Part shown: piece by piece, positions 3,939 to 61,018 of the stretch
Layout of the letters: each line of letters opens with the position of its first letter
Numbering within the stretch: position 1 is the stretch's first letter
Source of the DNA: a virus
Taxonomy: Duplodnaviria; Heunggongvirae; Uroviricota; Caudoviricetes
Virus record (IMG/VR): IMGVR_UViG_3300021387_000529
Coordinates: 154,811-218,810 of that record
Length of the DNA stretch: 64,000 bases
Direction: 5' to 3' (one strand)
The notes under the pieces: generated by a model
Database searches by the model: none
What the model was told of the DNA's origin: nothing
What the model saw: the letters and a program-made list of their open reading frames with translations, nothing else
Position numbers and translations under genes: made by a program

Positions 3939-6269
3939 TTATTGCCAGATGCCACCATCTAGTTTTCCTGACATTGTGAATTGTTTTGTCAATCTCATTA
4001 TGTCTTCTGGTGATTTATCTAAATTGTCTTCTTTATAAAACTTTTTAGTGGCAATAAACTCAGATGGATATAGTGAAGTCAAATATAATGAGCCAACGAT
4101 TGCGTCTGTAGCATCTTTTGCATTTATACCAGCTGTGCAGCTTTCCCAAGTTCCATCTTCCCAATCATAATTCAATGGTCCTTCAAAGTGGTCAATTTTT
4201 ACAGAGCCTGTACGTACACGTCGTACTTCATGCAAAGACTTCATGTTATTCTTTACAAAAATGTTCTTTCCACAATTGTAGCGTCCATGTGTAACTAAGT
4301 CATAGAAATTGTAATAAGGCTCATTATTCGTATCGACTGAAACATAATCAACTGCAATTCCATCACGTTTCAAATATTGTCGAGCAGCATCAGACTGCCA
4401 ACCATCAAATGAAACATGCCGCAAATTAATATTTCCAAGATATTTCAGGTCATGAATAAAATATTTAACAGCGTCCATGTTGATATGTCCGCCTTTTGGA
4501 ACAAGCACAATTGTAAAGTCTGTTACATAGACTGGGAGTGGTCTTCCAGTATGCTCGTCTATTCTTTGTGGGTCCAATTCAACATGCGACATTGCAATAC
4601 CAGTACAGTCTTTTGCTTTTGACAAGTCGACAGAAACTGTTCGTGGCAAGTCGGGCTCATAATAAAACTTGTATTTGTTAATCAATTTCTGGAAGAAACG
4701 CGGCCAAATCTGATTCCATATCAAATGTTCTGGCTCTTCATTTGCGAGAGCCACGATTGCTCCATATTGATTTTTTAAGCCATTATTAAAGCATTCTTCA
4801 ATCCAGTCATCACGATAGAATAAACGGTCTGGCGTACCAGCTGGCAAACCAGCCCAGTCTTTCATAAATTCAATTGGGTTGTCTTTTGCTTTCTGTAAGA
4901 AGTTGGCCGTACCATTCTTAGTGTATTGCTTTTTAGGACACCAAATCAAATCTGCTGGATTATACTGTGAAGCTTCTGCTGGATTTTCACATGCAACAGG
5001 TGGCTTACCATTACCACCTTTGTATAGCTGAAATGCAACATCATAATTATTTCTGACTTTTACGACTTTTTGCTCAAGTGTTCCTTTATTTTCAATATCA
5101 CAATAGTCTGGGAACTCTTCTGGATATAATTCCCAACGAGCGCCTTTCCAAATAAATGACTCTTCCAATTTTGGAGCATCATACGTCATATAATTCTGGA
5201 TTGGGTCTTCAAGTGTTGATGGAGAAGAGTCAAGTATCATACGTGCGAGATAAGCATTCTGGAAACGGTTTGAAATACGTTCTTTTAATTTTGAGAAAAA
5301 GTTGAAGATTTTTTGTTCAGTCCAACCTTTACCAGCTTCCAAGAAGAATGTAATCTCAGTCATACAACCAAACAAAATGTTAACACCTAACAAAGAGTTG
5401 GCACTTGAAATTACTTTCCATTGAAGGTTGTTTCCAGTATTGAATACAGATACTTGATTTCCGTTTTTCCAAGGAATATACTCAACTTCGTCACATTCTT
5501 GTAAATGCTTTTCCTCTTCCATCATTTCTGAGTGCGTACGGCATTGTTTCCAGAAGTCGGCACTTTCTATGAGCTGACGAATTGGCTCTTCATAAATTTC
5601 CTTTGCTTTTGTGATAGTAACAGCACAAAGTGTAATAGCAAAAATCGTAGTCTTTGCTTTTGAGAAGAACTTCCAAGGGTCGCGCATCAAAGCATATAAA
5701 CATGCAACATAAAGAAGTGACATCATAGTGAACGTAGATTTTCCTGCACCAATCGATGGGTTCAAATATGCATTTCTATATGGTTTAATTGGGTCAAAAA
5801 ATTCAAGGAAGTTTTTCTTTACTGGAAGGAATAAGTTGTCAGCCATCGCACCAATATATTTATTTGTTAAAAATTCTTCTGGTGTAGGTGGTTTAGTTTT
5901 ATACACAAGTTTCCATGGTTGAGAAACTAAAAGTGCTTGTAAGTCTTCATCAAAATTATTGTTTTGGATCCATTCAATAGCTGTTTTAATTTGTTTGAAA
6001 TTAAGATAGGAATAACGCTCATCTTTTGCAGCAGCTTGGTCACCTGATAGAATGTCTTTTATGATGTATTTTAATTCATTCACCTGACGAGGATTTTTGA
6101 ATTCCATTGCAGCCATTTCATTGTCAGAAGGTGAATGTGTATAGTCAAAATTATCTGGCATCAAAGCAGAATTTATTGTGTTAGCTGTCATTGCAGCTTG
6201 TTCAACAACCAAGTCATCTGGTGTCAATATCCTGCCTGGAGTGCCATTTGGTAAAATGATTTTCTCCAT
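3939..6269 (-). CDS. terL: Terminase large subunit
   Basis: Walker A PSIGAGKST, Walker B-like MTEITFF, nuclease motifs SVDLSKAKDCTGIAM, FDGWQS and KDATDAIVG. AACTAATT promoter motif upstream. Confidence 0.85.
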   Translation of the reverse strand: MEKIILPNGTPGRILTPDDLVVEQAAMTANTINSALMPDNFDYTHSPSDNEMAAMEFKNPRQVNELKYIIKDILSGDQAAAKDERYSYLNFKQIKTAIEWIQNNNFDEDLQALLVSQPWKLVYKTKPPTPEEFLTNKYIGAMADNLFLPVKKNFLEFFDPIKPYRNAYLNPSIGAGKSTFTMMSLLYVACLYALMRDPWKFFSKAKTTIFAITLCAVTITKAKEIYEEPIRQLIESADFWKQCRTHSEMMEEEKHLQECDEVEYIPWKNGNQVSVFNTGNNLQWKVISSANSLLGVNILFGCMTEITFFLEAGKGWTEQKIFNFFSKLKERISNRFQNAYLARMILDSSPSTLEDPIQNYMTYDAPKLEESFIWKGARWELYPEEFPDYCDIENKGTLEQKVVKVRNNYDVAFQLYKGGNGKPPVACENPAEASQYNPADLIWCPKKQYTKNGTANFLQKAKDNPIEFMKDWAGLPAGTPDRLFYRDDWIEECFNNGLKNQYGAIVALANEEPEHLIWNQIWPRFFQKLINKYKFYYEPDLPRTVSVDLSKAKDCTGIAMSHVELDPQRIDEHTGRPLPVYVTDFTIVLVPKGGHINMDAVKYFIHDLKYLGNINLRHVSFDGWQSDAARQYLKRDGIAVDYVSVDTNNEPYYNFYDLVTHGRYNCGKNIFVKNNMKSLHEVRRVRTGSVKIDHFEGPLNYDWEDGTWESCTAGINAKDATDAIVGSLYLTSLYPSEFIATKKFYKEDNLDKSPEDIMRLTKQFTMSGKLDGGIWQ

Positions 6270-6278
6270 ATATAGAGA

Positions 6279-6286
6279 AATTAGTT
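6279..6286 (-). promoter_or_regulatory. Late-type promoter motif AACTAATT (terminase)
   Basis: 9 nt upstream of the terL ATG. One of more than 20 CTAA(T/A/C)T copies. Confidence 0.6.
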
Positions 6287-6300
6287 GAAAAATAGACTAA

Positions 6301-6873
6301 CTATTTTTTCATTTGTCGTCTTCGTGTGCCATATTGATGTTTCTTCAATAAAACTCTTTGATTAGATGAACCACGAAGCAAAAGTGAAGTGTCACGCAAT
6401 TCTTCTTTATATGGTCCATCAATGAGAACATCAATCTTTTTCAAAATTTTTGAAATGCATCGTGGATAACTTTCGTTATCTGTATTAAATGCACTTTTAA
6501 ATCCTGTAAATTTTGATGCTTCTTTTTTAAGATACTCAATTGTGTAGCCTGTCCAAAGATAGATTTTAATTTTGTTACCAAAAACTTGCCTAATTCTGTT
6601 GATAACATGCATCACATTCGCAATATTCTTTGGGTCAAGTGGCTCACCACCGAGAATAGAAAAATTACGAAGCATTCCGTTCGCTTGAATTGCATCAATC
6701 AACTTATCCATCACATCTTTTCGTGGAACAAATTGTCCATATTCATAATCCCATAAGTCTTTGTTCTGACAATTAAAACAATGGTGTGAACAACCACTTA
6801 CCCACAGAGAAACGCATACGCCTTCATCACAGTCAACTACATCGTTTTCCATAATGCCAGCAATATGCATCAT
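6301..6873 (-). CDS. nrdG: Anaerobic ribonucleotide reductase activating enzyme (start revised from 6930)
   Basis: MHIAGIMENDVV..GVCVSLWVSGCSHHCFNC (CxxxCxxC), ILGGEPL, WTGYT, DVLIDGPY, LRGSSNQR. Confidence 0.95.
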   Translation of the reverse strand: MMHIAGIMENDVVDCDEGVCVSLWVSGCSHHCFNCQNKDLWDYEYGQFVPRKDVMDKLIDAIQANGMLRNFSILGGEPLDPKNIANVMHVINRIRQVFGNKIKIYLWTGYTIEYLKKEASKFTGFKSAFNTDNESYPRCISKILKKIDVLIDGPYKEELRDTSLLLRGSSNQRVLLKKHQYGTRRRQMKK

Positions 6874-6881
6874 TCTTTCAA

Positions 6882-7220
6882 CTACCATACAATGCCTCCA
6901 AAGTTGTCTTCTGTAGGAAACTGCGGCCATGGGACTTCAGGTTCTTCTTCGATTATTGGCTCAGGTAATGTCTCTTTTTCTTGATATTTATTATCGTCAT
7001 ATGAAATATGGTCAAAACATACTCTGAGTTTTGTTTTTCCATTAGCAATATCTTGCTCTATAGACTCAGTTAGAGCGCCATCTATATGCAAGTCAAATTT
7101 AGCCTTTTCAGAGTTAGCTACACCACCACATAATTGAGAATTACGTAGTTTCTCATATATTTTCTTGATAAATGGCATATTGAAGTCATAATTGTCAATA
7201 GATAATTCAAGTTCCATCAT
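6882..7220 (-). CDS. Hypothetical protein
   Basis: 112 aa acidic ORF in the nrdD-nrdG cluster. Confidence 0.55.
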   Translation of the reverse strand: MMELELSIDNYDFNMPFIKKIYEKLRNSQLCGGVANSEKAKFDLHIDGALTESIEQDIANGKTKLRVCFDHISYDDNKYQEKETLPEPIIEEEPEVPWPQFPTEDNFGGIVW

Positions 7221-7231
7221 TAAATATAAGA

Positions 7232-7795
7232 TTAATTTTTCTTTCTATTTCTCTCAAAAATAGAGTCAAACTCACCGACATTTGAGAAATAATTAATCAA
7301 AGTATTTGATAAAACATTACGTAATTGTCCGCTAATTTGAAATCTCTTTTCTTGGTCATCCAAAACTTTTTCGCCATCATGTGCCTGTAAAACCTCATAA
7401 TAGCTGACAACATCTACTAAAAATTCTGTTATGTCAACTAAGTCCATGTCATCAATGCCATTTGAGTAGTGGTCTGGATGATGCTTATTTTGAGTATAAT
7501 GATGGACGAAAAACTTTTTCCATCTGTTCATTTTTTCATAATATTCTTTTGTTCCATACTGACAGCGTGGCTCTTTATCCATTTCAATAAGCCATTCAAT
7601 TTCTGGAAACTGTAGTTTTGAATTGTCATGCTCTTCTGCTCTTTTTCTCAATTCTTCTGACAAAAACAATAATTTATCTCTAACAGACTTCTTATGCTTT
7701 AGTATAGTATCAATAGTCTTTCCAGCAGAATCATCTACAATGATACGTTCTTTATCTGCATCATATCCATCTATGATTAAACCTCTGTTATCCAT
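7232..7795 (-). CDS. HD-superfamily-like protein (DUF5662-like); start revised to ATG 7795
   Basis: RAEEHDNSKL, HHYTQNKHHPDHYSNGIDDMDLVDITEFLVD: the His/Asp metal-binding pattern of DUF5662-type proteins. Confidence 0.65.
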   Translation of the reverse strand: MDNRGLIIDGYDADKERIIVDDSAGKTIDTILKHKKSVRDKLLFLSEELRKRAEEHDNSKLQFPEIEWLIEMDKEPRCQYGTKEYYEKMNRWKKFFVHHYTQNKHHPDHYSNGIDDMDLVDITEFLVDVVSYYEVLQAHDGEKVLDDQEKRFQISGQLRNVLSNTLINYFSNVGEFDSIFERNRKKN

Positions 7796-7856: not shown

Positions 7857-10331
7857 AGCAGCTACAAATTTGATATTTGTAAACTTTGAATGCTGTTTTC
7901 TAAATGCAACTTCTTGCTGTTTACCATCATTAAAGCTTGTAAGATAATTTCCATTTAGATAGCCTGTAATTCGACGAAGCCAGTTAATTCTCTGAGAACC
8001 ACATTTACGGCATGTTTTTGTTTCTTCATCAATATCTGTTGAACCACAATCTGTACACTCATTCAATTTGAAGTTCATCGCAAAATATGAAATATCATGT
8101 GTCATTGCGTAATCTACAAACTGCTCAAGTGCTTTAAGATTGTTCTGTGTATTGTCGTCAATTTCAATATATGTGATTGAACCAGCTGATGAGTATGGAA
8201 CGAGCTGTGACTCAGCATCAATTTTGTCGAACACTGAAATGTCTTCCCATACAGGCACATGCATTGAGTTTGTAAAGAAGTTTTTCTTAATCAACTCACC
8301 GTCTTCACCCATAATTGCTGAAACATTTTCAATCAATCCATATTTTCTCTGGAATGCTTTCATTGACTTAAAGCACAAGTTTTCAGCAGGCGTATAATAA
8401 ACACCAAAATTCAATTTATAGTGCTCTTTATAAGCATTACATTTATCAAGGTAAAGCTGCTCAATACGTTTTGCAAGTTCCATTCCTTCTGGAGTTGTCT
8501 GGTCTTTTCCAATCAAAATGTAGAGTGTTTCTGCAAGACCAAGCTGGCCAATAGCAAATGTGCCGTGCTTCAAAGCAGAAATTGTGCCTTCTTCTGGAAT
8601 GTAGCCTTTCATAGTGTTGTTCTGATACATAAACTTAAATGCATCAGCAGGCTGCGCACAAATCCATCTAAAACGTTCAAGCAATTCATCTTTTGCGTCG
8701 CTAATACGCTCTTCAAGCATGTCGATGAAATAGTCAACAATATATTCTGGATGGTCTTTTGCCTTTTTCTTTGCTCTCATGGCCAAGAATGGCAAAACAA
8801 TTGTGATTGGAATAATATTTCCACGACCGTCTTTTTGAATAGCAGAATATAGATAATTCAATGGAAGACTTTTTGTCTCAATCGTTTTCTTAAGAAGGTC
8901 TTCAAAATAAATTCCATCAAAGTTTATATCAAAACCATTGAAAGTTCTACATCCCATTTGGGCTGCATATTCAAATGGCTGCTCATGTTTATTCATCACA
9001 ATTTCTTCATTTACAATATGAAAGCCAAGAGTCTCTTGAATTTCATCAGGCAATGATGCAATTTTTTTGAAGAATTCTGGATTTTCAGACTTAGCTTTTT
9101 CAAGTGTCTTTTTCTTAATGTCCTGCGATTTTTCAAATGCTTTTACCTGAACTGACCAGTCACCATTACTGAAATTTGGATAAATACGCTTTGGTGTAAG
9201 TTTGATTGCTTTCAATTTCAAGTCATAGTTTGGTGTGCCTGGAACATCATTAACGCCTTTCTTAATTTGAAATACACCACAAGGGAAAATTGGTGTCAAA
9301 TGGTTTTCACCAATGCCATTTTCCCAAGCGTCCAATAATGCATTTGTAATAAGTCGGCCTTCGGGTAGTGTACAACGACCATAACAAATTGATGTAAATG
9401 GAAGCTGATTTCCAGAACGAGATTGCAATGTATTCAAATTGTGGAGCATACTTTCCATAGCCTGGTTTGCTTCAGCTTTTGTGTCTTCAAGTGCCCATTT
9501 ATATGCCTGTTTATTTGTCTCTTTGTAGAGTTTGTCTTCAATTGACATTTTGTTGTTAAACTCTTTAGGAAGTTTTTCTTCTGTCAAACGTTCATAATGC
9601 TTCTTATAATACTTAAAGAAAGACTTCTTAACAAGCGGAACAAATGTCCAGTCAAGATGTGTTGCAGCAACTCCACCAAATTGTACCATTGACTGTGTCT
9701 GAAAATATACAACAAACAACTGGCTTCCAGTTGCAATTGACCCTGCAGGGCGAATATCATTTTTTGCTTTGATTGTTACTGGATGCTGTAGCATATCATC
9801 AAATGGAATTGACAAACAATTGTGCATACCTACTTTGTACTTATCAGCATCATGAATATAACCTTCAAATGAGCGGTGATTTTTTGCAAATTTCTCATTC
9901 ATCATGTATTCAAGAGCAAATTCTGTTGAATATGTTGATTGAGCTTCACCAATACGGCCACCTGCTGAGAACTCATCAATGTTCGCATTTTGGCGCTCAT
10001 TATGAGAACATGCATACTTTGCTTCCATTGCCTTAATGACATTAAACTGAATGAAACGTTTCTTGTCTCTTTCCTTTCTGTAGTCATGGTAAGTCTTCTC
10101 AACTTCGAACAAATTGTACTTCATCAATGCTTCTTCAACAGCATCATGAATGTCATTGATTTTTATTGGCTCATCAAGCTTTGATACTTTTGAAGTAACA
10201 TATTTTTTAATTTTCTGAAGAACATCTTCTGCTACTTCAGCCTTTGCTGCTTTGGCAGCTTTTATTACAGCTTTTGTAATTTTTGTATCGTCAAAATTAA
10301 CGATACGACCATCTCTTTTTTCAACTGTCAT
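7854..10331 (-). CDS. nrdD: Anaerobic (class III) ribonucleoside-triphosphate reductase
   Basis: N-terminal ATP cone (VEKRDGRIVNFDDTKITKAV), YIHD..HNC, RSGNQLPFTS, MGCRT, YYTPAENLC, TNSMHVPV, Zn ribbon CTDCG..CRKCG, glycyl-radical motif RRITGYL. Confidence 0.97.
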   Translation of the reverse strand: MTVEKRDGRIVNFDDTKITKAVIKAAKAAKAEVAEDVLQKIKKYVTSKVSKLDEPIKINDIHDAVEEALMKYNLFEVEKTYHDYRKERDKKRFIQFNVIKAMEAKYACSHNERQNANIDEFSAGGRIGEAQSTYSTEFALEYMMNEKFAKNHRSFEGYIHDADKYKVGMHNCLSIPFDDMLQHPVTIKAKNDIRPAGSIATGSQLFVVYFQTQSMVQFGGVAATHLDWTFVPLVKKSFFKYYKKHYERLTEEKLPKEFNNKMSIEDKLYKETNKQAYKWALEDTKAEANQAMESMLHNLNTLQSRSGNQLPFTSICYGRCTLPEGRLITNALLDAWENGIGENHLTPIFPCGVFQIKKGVNDVPGTPNYDLKLKAIKLTPKRIYPNFSNGDWSVQVKAFEKSQDIKKKTLEKAKSENPEFFKKIASLPDEIQETLGFHIVNEEIVMNKHEQPFEYAAQMGCRTFNGFDINFDGIYFEDLLKKTIETKSLPLNYLYSAIQKDGRGNIIPITIVLPFLAMRAKKKAKDHPEYIVDYFIDMLEERISDAKDELLERFRWICAQPADAFKFMYQNNTMKGYIPEEGTISALKHGTFAIGQLGLAETLYILIGKDQTTPEGMELAKRIEQLYLDKCNAYKEHYKLNFGVYYTPAENLCFKSMKAFQRKYGLIENVSAIMGEDGELIKKNFFTNSMHVPVWEDISVFDKIDAESQLVPYSSAGSITYIEIDDNTQNNLKALEQFVDYAMTHDISYFAMNFKLNECTDCGSTDIDEETKTCRKCGSQRINWLRRITGYLNGNYLTSFNDGKQQEVAFRKQHSKFTNIKFVAA

Positions 10332-41100: not shown

Positions 41101-41634
41101 ATGATTACTGAAAATCCTACATTCTTTATTTTTATGGACGACAACCAGTCTTTTGAAAGACTTAAAGAATTAAAGGCAAAGTCTACTTTTACAAAAGATG
41201 CAGTTATCTTTACCGATAACCAACTTAATAATAAAAGTCTTGCTGAAATATACAATGATAAAAAAGACATAATTTTAAATGCATATACTTTTAAAAACTC
41301 ATTAAACTCTGTAAATAAAGATATTTTTCACAATATGTTTAATGTTTTATGCATTTTTAGTGAAGACCTCCAGTTTTCAGAAAAAGACTTTTTTCGAATG
41401 AAAGACCTTGCAATAATTAAAAATGACAATGTCAGTCTTGTATCATTTGATGCGATTAGTGCATTGACATTTATGTTTATAAAAGACCTTTCATTTATTG
41501 ATGCTGGAATTTCACTGTATAAAATACATAAAGAGTCAAAGACTTCACTTGTACCAACTATGGATGGCCTTTCAAGTGGAGACCTTGACAGCAGTCTCGA
41601 CTTAATAAATATTGGATTAGGCTCTATTTCTTAA
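41101..41634 (+). CDS. Hypothetical protein
   Basis: 177 aa. GGCTAATT motif 4 nt before the ATG. Confidence 0.5.
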   Translation: MITENPTFFIFMDDNQSFERLKELKAKSTFTKDAVIFTDNQLNNKSLAEIYNDKKDIILNAYTFKNSLNSVNKDIFHNMFNVLCIFSEDLQFSEKDFFRMKDLAIIKNDNVSLVSFDAISALTFMFIKDLSFIDAGISLYKIHKESKTSLVPTMDGLSSGDLDSSLDLINIGLGSIS

Positions 41635-43082
41635 GAAGCAAATGACTCATCTTGTGTTTCTGCGTCTGTCTTTTCAATTTCAATTGGAAGAATATCAAAA
41701 TACTCACCATCGAAAACTCCAGTTACAGTTTCACCGATATCGCCATTGTTTAATTTTACAATTGAAACTTCAATAATGTCATCAAGCTCATCTTCATATT
41801 CTTCTTTTTTAAGATAGAGCTTTGCATACTGGTATTTTCTGAATGTTGTCAAAACATAACGAGCACGTTCCAAGAATGCGCCAGCATTTTTAATTTGAGC
41901 ACGGTTTGGACGAAGCTTGTCAAGGTCATCAATAGAATGAATACCACCTTGTGACTCATTGTTTCTGTTCATCTGAAGAACACCAATAAAATGAACTCCA
42001 AGTTTCTTTGCCAAAGCTGACAATGCATTTACTGCAATTTCAATTCCTTGTGCGAAGTTTGCTCCAGCTGTAAACTTAACAAAGTCTTTTACCATTGAGA
42101 GTAAGTCTATGACAACTACCCAATATTTACAACCAGTCTCTTTCTGGAATTTCTTTACGTCTTTTTCAATTTTATGGAGTGAAACATCACCACTTTCACA
42201 AAATCTGAATAATGGATTGTCTTCAAGAAGTTTTCTTTCGCTTTCAATCTGCTGAAGAATTTCTTCATAGTCTTCACCAGGATTTTTAATTTTCTTGTAT
42301 GGAATATGAAGACGTTTAGCAAGAAGACGGTCCATTGTTGCAACACCAGACATCTCAAGAGAATAGTACGCGCATGGAACATGCATCTCAATAAACTTAT
42401 TCACCTGGTCAAGACAAACTGTAGATTTACCTGAGCCTGATGCTGATGCGATAATTCCAATCTCACCAGGCTGTGGGCCATCATCAACAAGACTATCAAA
42501 AATATAATTTCTAAACCAATAAGTTTTTCCATTCTGTCTTTTTCGATATTCTTGCATGTAATTGCCAAACCATTGAGAAGTGGTCATAGCATCTTGGATG
42601 TCAGTTTCTTGTTTTGGATTTAATTTTGAAGAAGCTTCACAAATATCTTCATCAATCTTCTCATACTGCTCTTCTGTAACACGAGCAGTACTTTCAATTG
42701 TCTTGATTGCAGATTTCAACTTTGAGACAACTTCACGCCGTCTCTTAAAGTCTGCAAGCTGGTCAATAATATCTGTCAAGTCTTCATTTTTGACTGAGTC
42801 ATCTGAAACAGCATCAACAATATATGTATTTGCGTCAAGGTCTATAACAGAATATTCCTGCAAAAGAGCATCACGAGTTGGCTTTATTTTCTTTTGATTA
42901 AGATTGTATAAAGCTTTATAAATGTTTTTTGTTGACTGTGAAGACAACAAGTCTTCATCAACTCTCTCATCATCAAAATATTCTGGATTATTATAGAGCG
43001 CACGCAATAAACGACGCTCAGCAAAAAAGTCAGTCTCAAGTCTTTTTTGAATAGTTGTCTTGTCTTCTTTATTGTTTTCCAT
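41631..43082 (-). CDS. dnaB: Replicative DnaB-like helicase
   Basis: IASASGSGKST, YYSLEMS, VVIDLLS, LQMNR, IKNAG..LE, IVKLNNG. Confidence 0.88.
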   Translation of the reverse strand: MENNKEDKTTIQKRLETDFFAERRLLRALYNNPEYFDDERVDEDLLSSQSTKNIYKALYNLNQKKIKPTRDALLQEYSVIDLDANTYIVDAVSDDSVKNEDLTDIIDQLADFKRRREVVSKLKSAIKTIESTARVTEEQYEKIDEDICEASSKLNPKQETDIQDAMTTSQWFGNYMQEYRKRQNGKTYWFRNYIFDSLVDDGPQPGEIGIIASASGSGKSTVCLDQVNKFIEMHVPCAYYSLEMSGVATMDRLLAKRLHIPYKKIKNPGEDYEEILQQIESERKLLEDNPLFRFCESGDVSLHKIEKDVKKFQKETGCKYWVVVIDLLSMVKDFVKFTAGANFAQGIEIAVNALSALAKKLGVHFIGVLQMNRNNESQGGIHSIDDLDKLRPNRAQIKNAGAFLERARYVLTTFRKYQYAKLYLKKEEYEDELDDIIEVSIVKLNNGDIGETVTGVFDGEYFDILPIEIEKTDAETQDESFAS

Positions 43083-43109: not shown

Positions 43110-45026
43110 TTAATAACACCAAGTGTCAAAGTCAAGGTCATAAATTGAAAAGTTCTTGTCATATTCAAGAATCTCGTCAGTTTCAACCAAGTCTTCAAAA
43201 CGAACTGAACCACGTTGTGTAATAACATTTATATACAATGAGTTGTCCCATTTATTTCCTTTGTCATCTTCAACTTCGATAAACTCATGTGAAGGTGGCG
43301 CAACGAAGAATTGCTTAATCAAGTGCGCAATTTCTTTTGCAGATGGAATTTGCTGGAAGTTTGGGTCATTACATGCATGTCTGAATGAAACTACACCAAA
43401 TAAGTTCATAACTGGATGTACACGCTCAGTTCCATCATCATGGTCTATGATGAATGAAGACCAACCTTTTACGAATGTATTACGTGCAACCATAAATGAA
43501 CGGAAACGCTTGAGATTCTTAATTCCAGGCATTCCAAGACGCTCATATTCTTGAAGAACTGGGTCTGAAGTTGAATAAACACCTTTCTTATTTCTTTCAA
43601 TTTCTGGCCAACCCATTTTTTCAAACAATTTACCGAGCTTGTCAGTTGATGAAAATTCGAAGTTTTTATCGACTTTCCAAATCTGCGCCAAATTACTGCG
43701 TTCTTCATCGATAATTGCATCGATAGCTTTTGTCTGCTCAGCGATATTTTTACGACTGAAGAATGAACCATTAAGCTGTACCATTGTCATGACACGTGCA
43801 TTCGGTATCATAATTTCTTTGTAAAAACGATAAATTGTCCACTCTGGAATTTTCTCATTTGGAATAGTTTTGTCCAAATAGTGACACCATTCATCAAGCG
43901 CAACTTGCTGTCTCCATGTAACGGCAGGGTCCATAGCAGCGTATTCAATCAATGTGTTTTTTGGAATTTGAAGATAGTTGTCAACCTTGAGCTTTTTCTT
44001 AATTGTGTCAAGCATATCATCATATCCACCATAATTTCCACACCAGAACCAAGTTCCAGGTTTCAAACCTTTTGGTCTCGCTGAATTGATTGCCCATGAC
44101 AAAAATGTTGTGTCATCTGTTGCGAAAATATTTCTTATACCGTTCTGGTATAAGAAGCAAATATCGAATTTTGCATTGGCAAGTGTCAATCTTTTTGCGT
44201 GTTTCAAAACCATTGTAAATTTACGTTTGTGATTTTGAAGTGTAATCCATTCAAAATAATATGAATTAACGCCATCAGCACACATCTGAACTGTACCTAA
44301 CACATCATTATATGGAGAGAAGCCTGAAGTTTCGGTATCGAGCGCGAGCAATTCAGCATTGTCAAGAGTATTCAAAGCTTCGTCTATTTTACTTTCATCA
44401 CTACAATCATGGATAATAATCTCACGTGTGTCAAGGTCTTTCAAAGAAAAGTCATCATCAACCAAACGTGTGAGCTGTTTTCTGAAAAAGCGTGTATGAT
44501 AACAAACAAAATCTGCTTTTCCAACCATTGTAAATGGATAAATGTAATCAATTGGTGAGGCTGGATAAATCCATTTGTCAGGACCACCTACAAACTTCGA
44601 GCCACAAAAATAACGTGGTTTACTAAACTTGTCATCAATGAAGTCATAATAACCAATATCAGCACTTCTGTTCAAAACACGAATTGCACGACCAAATGCA
44701 ACAATTGCTGAACATTCTACATCACAAAATTTTATGTATTTTCGCCAATCTGACTCAAATGGAAGCAATTCTTTTGTTGTGTCAAGTTTTTTGTCGTCAT
44801 TTCCAATTGTTACGCATGACACAATACAATATGAAGTTATCCCTACTGTTGCAATATCTTTTTTAAGCTGGTCTATGATTTTCTTATTTTTACATGCATA
44901 GTCGAGCAAAAACAAAAAATAATTTGGAGCCTGACTATCAAAATGTTCAAATATCAAAGATGAGTCAGCCTGCTCAACTTGCAAGTTTTTAATCTTCATT
45001 GAAGAAGATACTTTTCCAAATGCCAT
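43110..45026 (-). CDS. polA: Family A DNA polymerase, N-terminal fragment (UDG-like domain, 3'-5' exonuclease, thumb; lacks motifs A/B/C)
   Basis: ExoI ALDTETSG, ExoII NAKFDI, ExoIII YAAMDP, then STSDPVLQE..RVHP..R...DPNFQQIP..IKQFFVAP. The ORF diverges right where DYSQ should follow. Confidence 0.85.
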   Translation of the reverse strand: MAFGKVSSSMKIKNLQVEQADSSLIFEHFDSQAPNYFLFLLDYACKNKKIIDQLKKDIATVGITSYCIVSCVTIGNDDKKLDTTKELLPFESDWRKYIKFCDVECSAIVAFGRAIRVLNRSADIGYYDFIDDKFSKPRYFCGSKFVGGPDKWIYPASPIDYIYPFTMVGKADFVCYHTRFFRKQLTRLVDDDFSLKDLDTREIIIHDCSDESKIDEALNTLDNAELLALDTETSGFSPYNDVLGTVQMCADGVNSYYFEWITLQNHKRKFTMVLKHAKRLTLANAKFDICFLYQNGIRNIFATDDTTFLSWAINSARPKGLKPGTWFWCGNYGGYDDMLDTIKKKLKVDNYLQIPKNTLIEYAAMDPAVTWRQQVALDEWCHYLDKTIPNEKIPEWTIYRFYKEIMIPNARVMTMVQLNGSFFSRKNIAEQTKAIDAIIDEERSNLAQIWKVDKNFEFSSTDKLGKLFEKMGWPEIERNKKGVYSTSDPVLQEYERLGMPGIKNLKRFRSFMVARNTFVKGWSSFIIDHDDGTERVHPVMNLFGVVSFRHACNDPNFQQIPSAKEIAHLIKQFFVAPPSHEFIEVEDDKGNKWDNSLYINVITQRGSVRFEDLVETDEILEYDKNFSIYDLDFDTWCY

Positions 45027-45046: not shown

Positions 45047-45454
45047 TTAATGACTGCTGAAGTCATTAGTGTATAGTTCTTTTGAAGTTGTCTTAATGAG
45101 ATTATCTAATTCTGAACCAAAAGCTACTAAAATGTCGCCATCATCATCTGCAAACTCATCAATCACAGAACGACATGCTCCACAAGGACCAACATTTGGA
45201 ACAGGAAGCGCAATAATAACTGCTTCAATCTTTTTGCAACCATGCGCAACTGCACTAAAGATTGCGTTTCTTTCTGCACAAATTGTCATTCCATAAGATG
45301 TATTCTCAACATTGCAGCCAATATATTCTCGGTTGTCATCTCCAATTACAACAGCTCCAACTGGAAATTTTGAATACGGACAATATGCATTTTTTGCTGC
45401 TTCTTTTGCTTTGTTAAAAAGTCTTTCTATATCTCTTGAGTTTAAATTATACAT
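45047..45454 (-). CDS. cdd: Cytidine deaminase (start revised from 45601)
   Basis: AYCPYSKFPVGA, GCNVENTSYGMTICAERNAI, PCGACR. Confidence 0.92.
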   Translation of the reverse strand: MYNLNSRDIERLFNKAKEAAKNAYCPYSKFPVGAVVIGDDNREYIGCNVENTSYGMTICAERNAIFSAVAHGCKKIEAVIIALPVPNVGPCGACRSVIDEFADDDGDILVAFGSELDNLIKTTSKELYTNDFSSH

Positions 45455-45470
45455 ATAATAATATATTAAC

Positions 45471-45500
45471 AAAAAAGGGAGCCGAAGCTCCCTTAAAAAT
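45471..45500 (-). terminator. Intrinsic terminator after dut
   Basis: Minus strand AAGGGAGC-ttcg-GCTCCCTT-TTTT. Confidence 0.8.
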
Positions 45501-45503
45501 TTT

Positions 45504-46133
45504 TTATTTCTGGCCAGGATTTGCGGCATCCTGTGGATTACCATTGCCAAATCCCTTTTCTTTTCGTTTGCTTTCATGTCCTTCATAGAACTTTTCAGCA
45601 TTTGTCTGGTTTTTCATTTCTTTGAAAAGCTCAATGCTGTCATCATACCAAACTTCGATTTCATCATTATCAATCTTAATTGGAATGAGCTGTGCAATTG
45701 ACTGTCCAAACTGAATGAAGCGCATGCTGTTTGACGCATTGAAAATATGAACATGCATAATGCCTTCATAAGATGAATCAATTGTGTCTGCGCCTACAAC
45801 CAACTTCTGTTTTGTACAAACACCAGACTTGTTTGCAACTTTGAGATACATATCATTTGGAATACGAGCTTTGAGATATGTTGGAATGAGCAAATCCTCA
45901 CCTGGAGCAAGATACAAATACAAGCCTTCGTTCTGTTTGACATTTTCCTCATTCTCAACTGGTGAACCAATTACACCCCAGCGAAAAGGATGTCCAGGGT
46001 TCTTTTTTGTCAAGTCAACCATGAACTGTTCTGTGAGGTTTGGAACGAATACATCAATTCCTGCATCATAACCAGCATCACGTTTTGGCGCCTTTACATC
46101 GCCACACACAAACAACTTTACTTTGTCTGACAT
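45504..46133 (-). CDS. dut: Trimeric dUTPase
   Basis: DAGIDV, ANKSG, TIDSSYEG, IAQLI, RKEKGFG. Confidence 0.92.
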   Translation of the reverse strand: MSDKVKLFVCGDVKAPKRDAGYDAGIDVFVPNLTEQFMVDLTKKNPGHPFRWGVIGSPVENEENVKQNEGLYLYLAPGEDLLIPTYLKARIPNDMYLKVANKSGVCTKQKLVVGADTIDSSYEGIMHVHIFNASNSMRFIQFGQSIAQLIPIKIDNDEIEVWYDDSIELFKEMKNQTNAEKFYEGHESKRKEKGFGNGNPQDAANPGQK

Positions 46134-53019: not shown

Positions 53020-53199
53020 ATGAAATTTATGGTGTCTGAAAATGGAAAGTCTTTTGTTATTTTGGAATTGAAAGAGGCCATAGAAAAATATGGAATCTCT
53101 ACAGATGATATGATGACCGCGCTTGAAACTGGTGCTGAAATTAAGTCTCCATTGACAGGCTCATCAATTGTTGTCGATGAGCCATTTGATGAAGATTAA
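53020..53199 (+). CDS. Small acidic protein (59 aa, below the ORF-track cutoff)
   Basis: RBS aaggag then MKFMVSENGKSFVILELKEAIEKYGISTDDMMTALETGAEIKSPLTGSSIVVDEPFDED*. Confidence 0.65.
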   Translation: MKFMVSENGKSFVILELKEAIEKYGISTDDMMTALETGAEIKSPLTGSSIVVDEPFDED

Positions 53200-55172
53200 A
53201 ATTCTTCGTCTGTTCGAACACGAAGTTTCATAAATTGAGAAACACTTTGCCATGTTCCAGCAGCTGACATAAAGACCGACTGTGATGAAACTTCATCTTG
53301 GTTACCACCAAATTTTTCAGAAGTAATTGGTTCCAATGATGCTGTTCCTTTATATGAAGTATCAATTGTACCATCATTTTTGAAGTCTTTATGAAGCTGT
53401 GAAATAGTTCCAGCATTTTCAGCATAAGTATCTTTTCGAAGTATTTTTCCAACTGAACCAACACGAGTAAAATATAAACTTGCGTATTTTATAACATAAG
53501 CAATGTTGAATTGTAAACCACGAATAAGTGACTCCAACTCACGGAGTGAGTATGCTTTTTCAGAAGGCGTAATTTTTTCAAGTCCATTTATAATATTTAA
53601 AAGATTGTCAAAGTTTTCAAGTGTTTCTTCATCCAAAGATAGGTCAGTAGATAATAAAACTTTAAGTTCATCAATGACATTATAATAAATTTTTGTTGGG
53701 TCACTTACAAAACTTTCAACTGAAAATGTGAGTGGATTTCCATCTTTATTATACTTAATTTTTAATGGGTCTCCAATCTTTTTTCCAAATTTATATTTTC
53801 GAGCATTTACAGGACGTGTATCTACTTCAGTTGATAAATTACCTTCAGCATATGGATAGCCAATTTCATTAGAAGAATGAACATCAGCATCAGACTTACG
53901 GCCAAACTCAATCCTTTTAATTGCTTCCCAAATTTCATCAATTGTAGTTGAGAAAATACGACCATCAATAAGAAGATTGCCATCTTTTGGAACAATAATA
54001 GGTGGGTCAATATAGTCGCTTTTTTGATTACGAGAGTGTGGGTCATAATACACAGGTGGTTTTGAGTCATTAAAAGCTGCAGACGTAAATGGTTTTTCGC
54101 CTTCAGAAATTTCAAAAGTCTCAGTTTGTAAAGAGCCTAATTTGTCTTTGTTCTGTTCATCAAAAAGAAACTCCATTGTGTCTGTTTCAATTGTATCTGC
54201 TATTCCATCGACCAAAGGCGTAGTGACTGGAATATATGGACGAGTTGTTTTTGATGTATCTTTATTATCATCTGAGTATTTATCAAATCTATTAAAATCT
54301 GCTGTTCCAGACAAAATTAAATTTCTATGAACAACATCTGAGTCTGGAGCCAAACTTTGGTTAAAGTCTTTATAGTCAATAATATCAGCATAGAATGCAC
54401 ACAAGATGCTAACATAACAATTTTTAAGCATATATAAGATGAGTGAATCTTCAATCTTAGCTTCTTTTAATTGCTTCTCGATAAAATCACGGACATCAAA
54501 TGTTGAATTTTGAATATTATAGAAGTTAACAAAAATACTGTTAAACAAATTAGAATTAAAGTCTATAAATACGCCATTAAATGCTAATAAATTAGAATAT
54601 TCTTTAAGATATTTTGTTTCAAATACAGTATCTTTATTTGACAAATAAACGTTTTCTTCTTTTGAAACATCGCTAGTATATCCAATAGCTGAATAAATGT
54701 TATTAGTTTCTTTCAAAAAAGAGTCAGTGTCAACATACTGCATAAAAGTATCTTTATCAAAAATTTTTATGCCTGGAGAGTAGCTTTTTCCAAATGAAGA
54801 TTGGTAATTATAATAAAAGTCACCGTTCTCAATCGCACCAATTTTTAATGTATCAATTACATTTTTAAACTCTGCTACTGAATAATCACTTAAAAATTTT
54901 TGAAAGTTTTTTTCATGTAAAAACAATGGTTTTGCTCGAAGGTCTACTTCAGGAATAGCAATTTTTACAGCAGTTTTTGGGTCTTTTTTGTCATCATCAT
55001 AATCATATGCAATGACAGTGTGGCTCAAGCTCAAACCTTCAGTAGAGTCTCGAATATAAATTTTATTATTTTTTTCAAAAAAAGCCAAATCAAAGAGAGA
55101 TACGTTTTCGCTATGATATTGAAATTCTGTAACAGATAGTCCCTGTTTCCACTCAGTTGATATGCGTGACAT
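53196..55172 (-). CDS. Hypothetical late/virion protein
   Basis: 658 aa, RBS ggag and AACTAATT motif upstream. C-terminal FMSAAGTW resembles tail-fibre termini. Confidence 0.55.
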   Translation of the reverse strand: MSRISTEWKQGLSVTEFQYHSENVSLFDLAFFEKNNKIYIRDSTEGLSLSHTVIAYDYDDDKKDPKTAVKIAIPEVDLRAKPLFLHEKNFQKFLSDYSVAEFKNVIDTLKIGAIENGDFYYNYQSSFGKSYSPGIKIFDKDTFMQYVDTDSFLKETNNIYSAIGYTSDVSKEENVYLSNKDTVFETKYLKEYSNLLAFNGVFIDFNSNLFNSIFVNFYNIQNSTFDVRDFIEKQLKEAKIEDSLILYMLKNCYVSILCAFYADIIDYKDFNQSLAPDSDVVHRNLILSGTADFNRFDKYSDDNKDTSKTTRPYIPVTTPLVDGIADTIETDTMEFLFDEQNKDKLGSLQTETFEISEGEKPFTSAAFNDSKPPVYYDPHSRNQKSDYIDPPIIVPKDGNLLIDGRIFSTTIDEIWEAIKRIEFGRKSDADVHSSNEIGYPYAEGNLSTEVDTRPVNARKYKFGKKIGDPLKIKYNKDGNPLTFSVESFVSDPTKIYYNVIDELKVLLSTDLSLDEETLENFDNLLNIINGLEKITPSEKAYSLRELESLIRGLQFNIAYVIKYASLYFTRVGSVGKILRKDTYAENAGTISQLHKDFKNDGTIDTSYKGTASLEPITSEKFGGNQDEVSSQSVFMSAAGTWQSVSQFMKLRVRTDEEF

Positions 55173-60043: not shown

Positions 60044-61018
60044 TTATTTTGCATGAACTTTTCCAAACCATGAAGTAGCATCAAGGCCATAAATAGCTTG
60101 GCGTATCATATCATTAAATTTTTGATTTTCTTTATTGAAGTGGATAAATTGTGAAACGTCTTTGCCTTCAAGTAAAGAACGAATAAGCTGGATATTCTGT
60201 TTCATCTTACCGACAACATTTTCTTTTTGTGATGCAATAGAAAACTCAATGGCAAGAATTTCTAAGTTGGATTTTTCTTCTTTTTTGGAAATCTTGATAT
60301 AGTCTAACGAGTCAAATTCTTTTAAAAACTCATCAATAGTTATTCCACTGTTTGATACATCACAAATAACATTATAGCATGTTTTTCTGATATTTGTCAT
60401 AAACTTTGCTTTCTTAAGGAAAATGCATCCTTGAATATTATCACTGCTATCGCCAAAAAATGACTTGTATAAAATATTCGCAGCAGGTGTCGGGTTGAAC
60501 TTAAACTTATCATAAAACTCTTGTTTAGACCAAGGATTGTCGAAGCCTTTGTTAATCATAAAGACATGCTCATTTAGAGCTTTCGCCCAGTCCTCATCAG
60601 TGGTGACAAGTGCAATATCGCCTGATAATGAAGAAACTAAAGGCTCAATAAAGTCATCAGCTTCATATTCTTGTGCATAAACTTCTTTTATGCTTTCGCC
60701 ACGATATGCAAAAAACTTCCAAATATTTTCAATTGTATTTGCATATAAATTTGAATATGTTCGTTTAGCTTTATATTTTTTATTAATATTCTTTCTAGTA
60801 GAATATGATTGAACATGAAATGATTTTTCTTCATTCAAGGTATTTTTTGAAATTGGGTCGAAAACAATATAGATTGTTCCGTCTTTTTTCAGATAGCGTT
60901 TTGTGTCATCATTTACAAATGAAATAAACTTTTTTGTGATGTCAATCACAGTGTCTTTTTCTTTTTGCAAACGATAGAAAAGGTTTGCTGAGTCTATTAT
61001 AATATTATCATATAACAA
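60044..61018 (-). CDS. 5'-3' exonuclease / RNase H (T4 rnh/FEN-like)
   Basis: IIDSANLFY, IVFD, YKAKR, YEADD, TTDEDW, GDSSDNIQG. Confidence 0.88.
   Translation of the reverse strand: MLYDNIIIDSANLFYRLQKEKDTVIDITKKFISFVNDDTKRYLKKDGTIYIVFDPISKNTLNEEKSFHVQSYSTRKNINKKYKAKRTYSNLYANTIENIWKFFAYRGESIKEVYAQEYEADDFIEPLVSSLSGDIALVTTDEDWAKALNEHVFMINKGFDNPWSKQEFYDKFKFNPTPAANILYKSFFGDSSDNIQGCIFLKKAKFMTNIRKTCYNVICDVSNSGITIDEFLKEFDSLDYIKISKKEEKSNLEILAIEFSIASQKENVVGKMKQNIQLIRSLLEGKDVSQFIHFNKENQKFNDMIRQAIYGLDATSWFGKVHAK

Follow-up and report, generated by a model that had tools for sequence, protein, structure and literature searches.

A family A DNA polymerase gene conserved in pieces in a clade of ruminant-gut phages, with putative intein relics at the break points

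Loci in which the halves of a naturally split intein flank a free-standing homing endonuclease gene have been described as "fractured genes" (Dassa et al. 2009, PMC2677866), the gp41-1, NrdJ-1, IMPDH-1 and DnaE loci being examples (PMC2677866), and an acidic N-part facing a basic C-part is a polarity described for split inteins (PMC2677866; PMC11766414). In Aeromonas phage Aeh1, the NrdA-a / mobE / NrdA-b locus is a case of "genes in pieces" whose tails are essential (Friedrich et al. 2007; Crona et al. 2011, PMC3045599). Its function is regained without RNA or protein splicing, the C- and N-terminal tails made by the insertion being needed for assembly, and the authors speculated that these tails could be remnants of degenerate inteins (PMC3045599). 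Replicative polymerases in several genes are also known: T7-like cyanophages have family A enzymes with exo and pol in separate genes (Czernecki et al. 2023, PMC10201439; PMC12695635), T4-related phages have the bicistronic family B polymerases gp43A/gp43B (Petrov, Karam and co-workers, as cited in PMC2677866 and PMC3045599), and group 2.2 jumbo phages have a split minimal Pol III alpha (Iyer et al. 2021, PMC7824862).

The locus analyzed here belongs to a phage with a complete genome (300,878 bp, DTR), in which the family A enzyme is the only recognisable replicative DNA polymerase. It is encoded in three pieces, here called N, M and C, and it indicates that a Pol I-type core is divisible within palm and fingers into three proteins, an arrangement conserved across a clade of ~300-kb ruminant-gut phages. 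The N piece lies in the window, that is, the whole 64-kb stretch of DNA that was analyzed (Table 1).

Table 1. Features of the polymerase genes and their neighbors; positions without a prefix are those of the window.
Feature	Position	Strand	Basis or remark
N piece, family A DNA polymerase, 638 aa	43110..45026	(-)	ORF list, Pfam, 50+ homologues
3'-5' exonuclease domain, N-piece residues 209-372	43911..44402	(-)	Pfam PF01612 (DNA_pol_A_exo1), E 1.5e-10
N-piece share of polymerase domain, residues 429-583	43278..43742	(-)	Pfam DNA_pol_A 5-155 of 381
Tail 1 of N piece, residues 580-638, 59 aa, net charge -11	43113..43289	(-)	AF2 model, fold search, hhalign
Tail 1 core, residues 581-621	43164..43286	(-)	hhalign against split-intein N-fragments
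Stop codon of N piece, conserved	43110..43112	(-)	27 nt ahead of dnaB start
DnaB-type replicative helicase gene, directly downstream; context, not polymerase	41631..43082	(-)	Pfam DnaB_C, E 1.2e-24
Separate 5'-3' exonuclease / FEN gene	60044..61018	(-)	Pfam 5_3_exonuc_N, E 1e-8
M piece, 124 aa, motif A strand with catalytic Asp and first fingers helices	G000:C1:71806-72180	(+)	
C piece, 337 aa, motifs B and C	G000:C1:75270-76283	(-)	

A conserved split polA gene

The N piece comprises an N-terminal region, the 3'-5' exonuclease, the thumb and the first palm strand, followed by a tail that we discuss below as a putative intein relic. The three exonuclease motifs Exo I-III are all present (DTE, residues 229-231; NAKFD, 284-288; YAAMD, 362-366). 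The DNA_pol_A part stops at IKQFFVAPPS, directly ahead of motif A, and the alignment of residues 400-584 with the Klenow fragment (phmmer, E 7e-9) ends at Klenow IAPEDYVIVS, the strand preceding motif A. Pfam and phmmer thus agree with the original prediction that the ORF tracks PolI to just before motif A. The ~60 unrelated residues, the stop and the dnaB gene that it placed thereafter were also found, residues 580-638 having no match in Pfam or PHROGs. The surroundings of the N piece form a replication module with DnaB, dUTPase, dCMP deaminase and FEN. The last, as predicted, is a gene of its own; a free-standing 5'-3' exonuclease gene is ordinary for phages.

Motif scans and Pfam searches revealed no motif A, B or C in any frame of the window, as had been expected for the neighborhood of the gene. 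A six-frame regular-expression scan for motif A (D.S..E.R and looser forms) gave nothing convincing because the motif reads DFRSLQ in this phage. One near-match, DYSVAEFK in the window ORF 53196-55172, was dropped; this ORF has no Pfam family.

An identical 638-aa N piece was called on 15 contigs, more than 50 N-piece homologues (613-701 aa, down to 35% identity) share the same end point, and contigs from four independent ruminant-gut runs span the tail and the stop without indels. The truncation is therefore not an assembly error, one of the explanations considered at the outset. The N piece is a genuine, conserved split polA gene.

The palm/fingers half had been predicted to be encoded elsewhere. 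It is found in the same genome, although in two genes rather than one, a 124-aa protein with motif A and a 337-aa protein with motifs B and C. The prediction that PolI functions are spread over at least three genes holds with a refined count, three genes for the polymerase proper and four with FEN. The M gene, ~126 kb from the N piece, was found via the motif-A segment of a two-piece relative (tblastn, E 3e-22, 52% identity). Its motif A is DADFRSLQ (residues 18-25), with the Asp retained and Gln in place of Glu, and in the fused relatives P0095 and P0102 the homologous segment falls within the Pfam DNA_pol_A match. The C piece carries motif B as RADAKGINFGALFG (residues 28-41; RADAKGINFG..FG) and motif C as VHDS (residues 210-213), with Ser where Glu is expected. 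It matches Pfam DNA_pol_A 204-374 at 26.3 bits and its orthologue in relative L008 does so at 34.7 bits, above the cut-off; taken alone, the M and C pieces of this genome score under the Pfam gathering threshold. Across the complete 300,878-bp genome, the Pfam search for DNA_pol_A returned the N and C pieces only, so that no full-length polA exists elsewhere to make the N piece a second copy, and family B and Pol III alpha polymerases were not found. A 125-aa ORF upstream of the C piece (G000 76295-76672), considered as a degenerate motif-A piece, was rejected because L004, a relative with motif A in its N piece, also has its orthologue.

The Pol I consensus is Dx[S]xxE for motif A, with the steric-gate Glu, RxxxKxxxFGxxYG for motif B and HDE for motif C. 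Since the motif A Glu is replaced by Gln and HDE by HDS, polymerase activity is not to be assumed. Both replacements are clade-wide, unsplit relatives included, and the catalytic Asp residues of exo and pol are kept. Sequence searches of the PDB with the M profile and with the C piece gave no match at the thresholds used, and tblastn against cultured phages returned distant full-length PolAs only (21-26% identity) and no cultured relative.

Tails and leaders at the break points

Both the N piece and the M piece end in a tail with similarity to inteins. Using hhalign, the core of tail 1 aligned with genuine split-intein N-fragments at Prob 96.4% and E 1.4e-9 over 41 columns, from the strand ahead of block B to the canonical split point, and the M-piece tail at 96.1% and E 3.4e-9, the fragments compared being Pfam-verified but themselves recruited using the tail profile. 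The N and M tail profiles aligned with each other at 93.4% (E 2.4e-7), and in a search of 1.84e9 proteins the tail profile matched the same inteins at E ~1e-4. The fold search with the AF2 model of the N tail gave 20 PDB chains at Z>=2, every one of them a Hint fold (19 inteins and a hedgehog Hint domain; Z 2.0-3.7), and the M tail model superimposed on the Pho PolII mini-intein with Z 5.0 and an rmsd of 1.8 A over 47 residues. These absolute Z values (2.0-5.0) are low, as expected, because the fragments have ~48 residues. The last ~15 residues of tail 1 fall outside the Hint-like part and have low AF2 confidence.

Other searches were negative. Foldseek with the tail against the PDB gave nothing at E<=0.001, Npu DnaE ranking second and third with a TMq of 0.52; Pfam (E<=1) and PHROGs returned no intein for the tails, nor did PDB searches with the tail profiles (E<=10). 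The tail HMM detected no copies in the genome besides those of the N and M pieces. Taken together, the profiles and the models indicate that both tails descend from the second half (block B / N4) of a split-intein N-fragment. This is in line with the view, already put forward from the first reading, of a catalytically dead Hint/intein-derived fragment, for which the fold search, the hhalign match and the library-wide profile matches all argue.

What is left is a ~45-residue fragment from block B to N4 and not a complete Hint domain of ~125+ residues. The first Hint half has no counterpart, as conserved PolA sequence reaches right to the tail, and the whole block A region is missing together with its Cys/Ser nucleophile at intein position 1. 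The original prediction saw no Cys/Ser at that position. A serine, S579, does stand at the junction, but the substance of the statement survives: with the whole N-terminal intein half missing, S579 is not a true position-1 nucleophile. The Thr/His positions of block B are occupied by Ser/Ile in tail 1, which agrees with the noted lack of TxxH, and by Gly/Gln in tail 2, where the Gln is invariant among M pieces.

Downstream of each break, the protein opens with a short leader and then continues into conserved PolA sequence. The leader of the M piece has 11 residues and is basic (xLKIxK type); that of the C piece has eight (YKIT[K/E]R type). Both recall the opening strand of an intein C-fragment, a resemblance in sequences too short for statistics. 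A complementary Hint fragment ahead of the downstream piece, as first envisaged, was not found beyond these 8-11 residues. Stop codons lie three codons upstream of the M start and one codon upstream of the C start and therefore leave no room for blocks F/G or the terminal His-Asn; blocks F/G, a terminal (His-)Asn and a +1 Cys/Ser/Thr on the partner are all lacking from both pieces. Mean net charges are -8.7 for N tails versus +2.7 for M leaders at site 1, and -3.9 for M tails versus +2.1 for C leaders at site 2, which matches the polarity known from split inteins. The C leader of this genome has a net charge of 0.

Assembly of the pieces and the alternatives

Taking the evidence as a whole, we think it probable that three separately translated proteins form the family A polymerase, with the tails and leaders acting as clasps. 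In this model, a single Pol I-like fold would most likely arise by non-covalent association of the N, M and C pieces. At each break point the upstream protein would end in an acidic five-stranded mini-domain of ~45-55 aa and the downstream protein would contribute its short basic leader, the pair keeping only the electrostatic "capture" role of a split intein and clasping the junction. In a complex prediction, N(205-638) + C + M scored 0.84, and the control with chain 1 replaced scored 0.70, a pair of values given no weight for or against the model. We infer that the complex forms and is active with help from the tail/leader pairs, and non-covalent assembly through intein relics, as suggested in the original prediction, is plausible.

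Clusters of relatives were recovered for all pieces (50+ for N, 30 for M and 45 for C), and the three are kept as intact ORFs in dozens of ~300 kb phages. L008 has its N, M and C genes in colinear order within 5 kb, separated by foreign ORFs, whereas in L004 N and M are joined in a protein of 701 aa that includes motif A and has just one tail. The pieces are dispersed in the genome described here. M has an HNH-NUMOD3 homing endonuclease gene ~460 nt upstream, and C adjoins an HNH-like gene. The ORFs between the pieces in the colinear L008 and L004 matched no endonuclease family. In a separate observation, six metatranscriptome runs contained only 4-9% of the sampled words.

One could instead propose that the three-piece polymerase works but that the relics are inert scars of old mobile-element insertions, the native palm/fingers interfaces driving assembly. 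The neutral C leader of this genome would fit such a view, as would P0037 and P0038, whose N tails are shorter and end straight after the Hint-like core. However, the tails are under purifying selection: the substitutions within the N tail among ruminant-gut contigs are at third codon positions in 9/9 cases, and the Gly/Asp/Phe columns are invariant over a 35-100% identity range. Tail and leader are, moreover, gained and lost jointly, co-occurring in trans or in cis or both missing (P0094, P0154/55, P0036, P0054). The same short tail also ends unrelated split genes, namely Pol III alpha (P0145, P0147) and RNA ligase, and in the Aeh1 split NrdA the tails are essential (PMC3045599). We consider this reading unlikely.

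Much less credit is given to the idea that the tail represents an insertion domain peculiar to the lineage and serving another purpose, such as binding the neighboring DnaB helicase, a clamp or DNA; its intein likeness would then be convergent, or its docking role irrelevant. PolAs are known to carry structured partner-binding insertions of ~50 aa, T7 with its thioredoxin-binding domain and phiKMV with an insertion in the thumb being examples (PMC10201439). In the unsplit relative P0055, both sites are occupied by insertions of comparable size, which the tail HMMs do not recognise and for which we claim no homology. Convergence, however, leaves the profile homology to genuine inteins unexplained. 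In the search of 1.84e9 proteins, nearly all occurrences of the tail domain were at the very C-terminal end of gene fragments, and the domain also caps unrelated split enzymes. We regard the proposal as very improbable.

The original prediction had offered atypical protein trans-splicing as another way to join the pieces, and we now see almost no chance for a covalent junction made by such minimal relics. The tails are intein-derived, and serines stand ahead of tail 1 (S579) and after the M leader (Ser12), but the relic, at ~59 + 11 aa, has about half the length of the smallest solved mini-inteins among the matches (127-145 residues), and in P0094 and P0154 the same relic sits permanently inserted in cis. 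The pieces are not ligatable, because the first Hint half, the block A nucleophile, the block B Thr/His, blocks F/G, barred by the upstream stops together with the terminal His-Asn, and the +1 nucleophile are all gone; with blocks A, B, F and G missing, trans-splicing is effectively excluded. Equally hard to credit is a decaying polA remnant replaced by a host or unrecognised polymerase, which the altered motifs A and C and the sub-threshold Pfam scores of the M and C pieces might suggest, but against which stand the three conserved ORFs, the retained catalytic Asp residues, the third-position variation, the complete genome with no alternative polymerase and the place of the gene in the replication module.

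Returning to the clasp model, a broader proposal can be made, to which we give an even chance: truncated, splicing-dead split-intein relics would be a portable non-covalent clasp, made of the acidic block B/N4 half and the first basic C-intein strand, that keeps essential enzymes of large phages working after mobile-element cuts. Two diverged and presumably orthogonal clasps would order N -> M -> C, and the module, which also caps split Pol III alpha and RNA ligase, would toggle between cis and trans in close relatives. A split intein without its chemistry would thus show that the association surface can survive as a docking device, and gene fragmentation by mobile elements would become survivable. 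If the tail/leader pairs are specific, they would represent natural, very small, orthogonal heterodimerisation tags (~50 + 10 aa) and a tractable system for the isolated "capture" step of split-intein assembly. The locus also indicates that a motif A metal ligand can reside on a 124-residue mini-subunit, and it carries a warning for annotation: a polymerase that looks "truncated" in a phage metagenome may be a complete enzyme encoded by several genes, and catalytic motifs can sit on short hypothetical proteins, the M piece being one.

Comparison with known split enzymes

Like the split PolA of T7-like cyanophages, this is a multi-gene family A polymerase with presumably non-covalent assembly. 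There, however, the break lies between the exo and pol domains, whereas both breaks here are inside the catalytic domain, before motif A and before motif B, are accompanied by putative intein relics and leave motif A alone on a 124-aa protein. With gp43A/gp43B it shares a replicative phage polymerase split within the polymerase domain, the parts being separated in some T4-related phages by a homing endonuclease gene; the gp43 enzymes differ in belonging to another polymerase family and in having two pieces, and intein-derived tails are not reported for them as far as the citing papers describe them (PMC2677866, PMC3045599). The group 2.2 jumbo phages likewise have a polymerase catalytic core on distant genes, and our tail profile matches the C-termini of Pol III alpha fragments (P0145, P0147), although the enzyme family is different and an intein relic is not described for group 2.2 (PMC7824862).

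The Aeh1 NrdA is also an essential enzyme fragmented by a mobile element, in that case an RNR in two pieces and not a polymerase in three. Its tails are short and their intein origin was speculative; the idea of intein-derived tails now has sequence and fold evidence at the present locus, where fold and profile both speak for an intein ancestry and the role of the tails is putative.

The fractured genes differ from this locus in several ways. Here, the N-intein would be reduced to its second half and the C-intein to about one strand, all splicing residues are lost and ligation is impossible, two such sites occur in one enzyme, and the pieces are scattered over 126 kb and both strands. The likeness is nevertheless extensive. 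In both cases, a phage-type essential replication gene is broken beside its catalytic motifs at the canonical N4/C2 point, and an acidic intein N-part ends the upstream piece and a basic C-part opens the downstream one. Foreign ORFs stand between the pieces in the relative L008, and in the present genome homing-endonuclease genes are found near M and C. The tails of this polymerase are, furthermore, profile-homologous to such split inteins.

Three genes for the polymerase core

The first piece (N) of the split family A DNA polymerase (PolA) lies in the window, on a genome record that is complete at 300,878 bp with direct terminal repeats; the window spans G000:C1:154811-218810 of that record. 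Our Pfam search placed a 3'-5' exonuclease at residues 209-372 and DNA_pol_A at residues 429-583, the latter covering just positions 5-155 of the 381 in the profile. The phmmer alignment with the Klenow fragment (E 7e-9) ended at IKQFFVAPPS, which is paired with the Klenow strand directly before motif A. No match in Pfam or PHROGs was obtained for residues 580-638, the tail region, after which come a stop and, 27 nt on, a DnaB-type helicase gene. Homologues of N form more than 50 clusters (613-701 aa, identity down to 35%), every one truncated. The predicted break just before motif A stands. The separate 5'-3' exonuclease gene, also predicted, is real; such a gene is the usual layout in phages. 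Upstream of N, the dCMP deaminase and dUTPase ORFs overlap by ~100 nt when counted from their first start codons, and the true start of the deaminase is probably further downstream than listed.

An assembly artefact or a decaying polA copy was ruled out by the conserved truncation, the third-position variants and the lack of a full-length polA in the genome. The identical N protein was called on 15 contigs. For the variant check, contigs came from four independent runs on gut metagenomes (goat, sheep, bovine and other animals). Across the tail and stop these contigs differed by substitutions and never by indels, contrary to the frameshift or assembly error named beforehand as a possible refutation. 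All nine variants within the tail fell at third codon positions, as did 27 of 28 listed for N in the stretch compared. The complete genome contained no full-length polA, whose presence had been named as another refutation, and neither a family B polymerase nor Pol III alpha.

The C piece, recovered by the whole-genome search, has RADAKGINFG..FG as motif B and VHDS as motif C; motif A is missing from it. In the alignment of N homologues, a subgroup of ~690-700 aa still has motif A, as ADFASLQFR, together with the DAHS helix; a similar tail follows. A tblastn search of the genome with the motif-A segment of P0036, from that subgroup, uncovered the M piece, which reads DADFRSLQ (motif A, with Gln for Glu), NDAHS and then a tail of its own (tail 2, that of N being tail 1). 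As N, M and C were all found, the polymerase proper is encoded by three genes; the remainder was rightly expected elsewhere in the same genome, but it is in two genes and not in the single half that had been foreseen. M and C are ~122-126 kb from N and on opposite strands, and their homologues form 30 and 45 clusters, respectively. Motif A of this PolA clade is D-F-R-S-L-Q, with Gln at the steric-gate Glu position of Pol I, and motif C is H-D-S versus H-D-E in Pol I. The same two substitutions occur in the T7-type single-subunit RNA polymerases.

Two neighbors were recorded. Directly downstream of M is an MFS/sugar-transporter family gene, an unusual cargo for a phage. A conserved ~120-aa protein (VTSSYFDD...W.KGC.ELS.YV) accompanies C in three-piece and two-piece phages, including a relative's locus (L004:7518-7871); its sole family match was a weak one.

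Coordinates of the polymerase pieces and neighboring genes (G000:C1, complete phage record; L007, its sub-stretch with M and C)
Feature	Window	G000:C1	L007	Strand	Basis
N piece, 638 aa	43110-45026			minus	ORF list
dCMP deaminase ORF	45047-45601			minus	
dUTPase ORF	45504-46133			minus	
5'-3' exonuclease gene, separate	60044-61018				confirmed real
HNH-NUMOD3 homing endonuclease gene with the overlapping methyltransferase-like ORF		70704-71796	4704-5796	plus	PHROG 655, E 7e-34 (endonuclease)
M piece, 124 aa		71806-72180	5806-6180	plus	tblastn E 3e-22, 52% identity
MFS/sugar-transporter family gene		72196-73311	6196-7311	plus	Pfam MFS_2, E 5e-27
C piece, 337 aa		75270-76283	9270-10283	minus	Pfam, whole genome
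C-companion protein, ~120 aa		76295-76672		minus	DUF5674, E 0.007

Intein ancestry of the tails

The tails of N and M share homology (hhalign 93.4%, E 2.4e-7), and AF2 modeled them as a small all-beta domain (five strands and pLDDT 80-92 for the M tail; pLDDT 74 for the N tail). When the N-tail model was compared exhaustively with 48,161 PDB representatives, just 20 chains reached Z>=2, and all 20 have the Hint fold: 19 inteins, PI-PfuI, gp41-1, NrdJ-1, Npu DnaE and VidaL among them, and a hedgehog autoprocessing domain (Z 2.0-3.7, rmsd 2.1-4.1 Å, 39-54 residues). The M tail matched the P. horikoshii PolII mini-intein (Z 5.0, rmsd 1.8 Å, 47 residues) and the KlbA intein (Z 4.2). Absolute Z values are low because the tail has just ~48 residues; the weight of this model-based search is in the exclusivity of the match list and not in absolute Z.

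Sequence evidence independent of the fold search came from a tail profile run against 1.84 billion proteins (E<=1e-3). Nearly all of its 65 matches were at the extreme C-terminus of the matched protein, and they included genuine split-intein N-fragments: P0125, P0142 (Pfam Intein_splicing 4e-11), and P0123 and P0134, both with block B intact. P0125 is a ribonucleotide-reductase fragment that begins with an intein C-part (ending HN/C) and finishes with an intein N-part (Intein_splicing 4e-13). Profile-profile comparison with these four inteins put the N tails at 96.4% (E 1.4e-9) and the M tails at 96.1% (E 3.4e-9). The aligned span begins at the strand preceding block B and finishes where the N-intein does, at the canonical split and endonuclease-insertion point. 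In place of the block B Thr/His, tail 1 has Ser/Ile and tail 2 has Gly/Gln. The tail is the dead Hint-like fragment that had been proposed.

The short acidic tail, without the intein first half, also ends Pol III alpha fragments (P0145 and P0147, after a FERFL..ER motif) and a T4 Rnl1-like RNA ligase fragment (P0121). P0143 is a 122-aa PolA micro-fragment with the PNFQQ..FQPP segment only, an intein C-part-like start (...LLTRQ/S) and the tail domain at its end, so at least four pieces must make up the polymerase of that phage. These occurrences show that the module is not confined to the three-piece polymerase and that it caps split phage genes recurrently.

Loss of splicing and probable assembly of the pieces

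Conserved PolA sequence reaches the tail, so the Hint fold lacks its first half, block A nucleophile included. The complementary Hint fragment expected before the downstream piece was not found: only short leaders, 11 residues in M and 8 in C, precede conserved PolA sequence, and the starts are preceded by stop codons at a distance of 3 codons (M) and 1 codon (C), leaving no room for blocks F and G. With the block B replacements, this excludes splicing of the polymerase pieces, including the atypical trans-splicing once suggested. In relatives the relic also persists in cis as a permanent insertion, in P0094 (tail 1, linker, LLKIEH strand, then motif A) and in P0154 and P0155, M-C fusions with tail 2 inside.

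In split inteins, as described in PMC2677866 and PMC11766414, the N-part is acidic around the break and the C-part basic, and the two associate by these regions; the review's term is "capture and collapse". Mean net charge is -8.7 for N tails (-11 in this genome) and +2.7 for M leaders (xLKIxK type), and -3.9 for M tails and +2.1 for C leaders (YKIT[K/E]R type, kept in 26 clusters); the retained tails and leaders fit this pattern. In sequence the leaders look like the opening strand of the genuine intein C-part of P0125 (MIKIRKV...), but they are too short for a statistical test. Without exception, tail and leader are both present or both absent, in cis or in trans. In our reading, each pair may act as a clasp that no longer splices and that aids the docking of M onto N and of C onto M; native contacts of palm and fingers would then complete the Pol I-like fold. 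We infer that N, M and C probably assemble non-covalently through these clasps.

Split states, origin and known systems

Among close relatives, N, M and C may all be separate, as in this genome; N and M may be fused and C separate, with or without insertion 1 (the cis form of the tail 1 relic, before motif A); or N may be separate from fused M and C. In relative L008 the three genes are colinear within 5 kb, in the order N (621 aa), two ORFs in reverse orientation, M (120 aa), a further ORF and C (305 aa). Relative L004 has N and M as a single protein of 701 aa, with two small ORFs between it and C. P0060 and P0155 have near-identical M sequences and different tails, which suggests repeated fission or fusion, or cassette exchange, at relic boundaries. 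After near-identical M N-terminal halves (P0060 versus P0155; P0154) comes either a stop or a different tail fused in-frame to C, suggesting that recombination or a cassette exchange occurred recently and exactly at the relic. In this genome, an HNH-like gene abuts C, and the HNH-NUMOD3 gene just upstream of M overlaps an ORF for a 190-aa N6-adenine methyltransferase-like protein; this overlapping pair could form a mobile cassette by which M was moved.

PolA splits on record are at the exo/pol boundary only; PMC10201439 describes that split as the first one among PolAs. T4-like and jumbo phages have known splits of PolB and Pol III alpha (PMC2677866, PMC7824862). Our literature searches returned no account of a PolA divided within its catalytic core to give three proteins, nor of junction modules that are truncated dead-intein relics. 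The L008 layout, with colinear pieces and foreign ORFs between them, resembles "fractured genes"; those known so far have active split inteins (PMC2677866). Aeh1 NrdA likewise has genes in pieces with assembly tails, whose intein origin is a speculation in PMC3045599.
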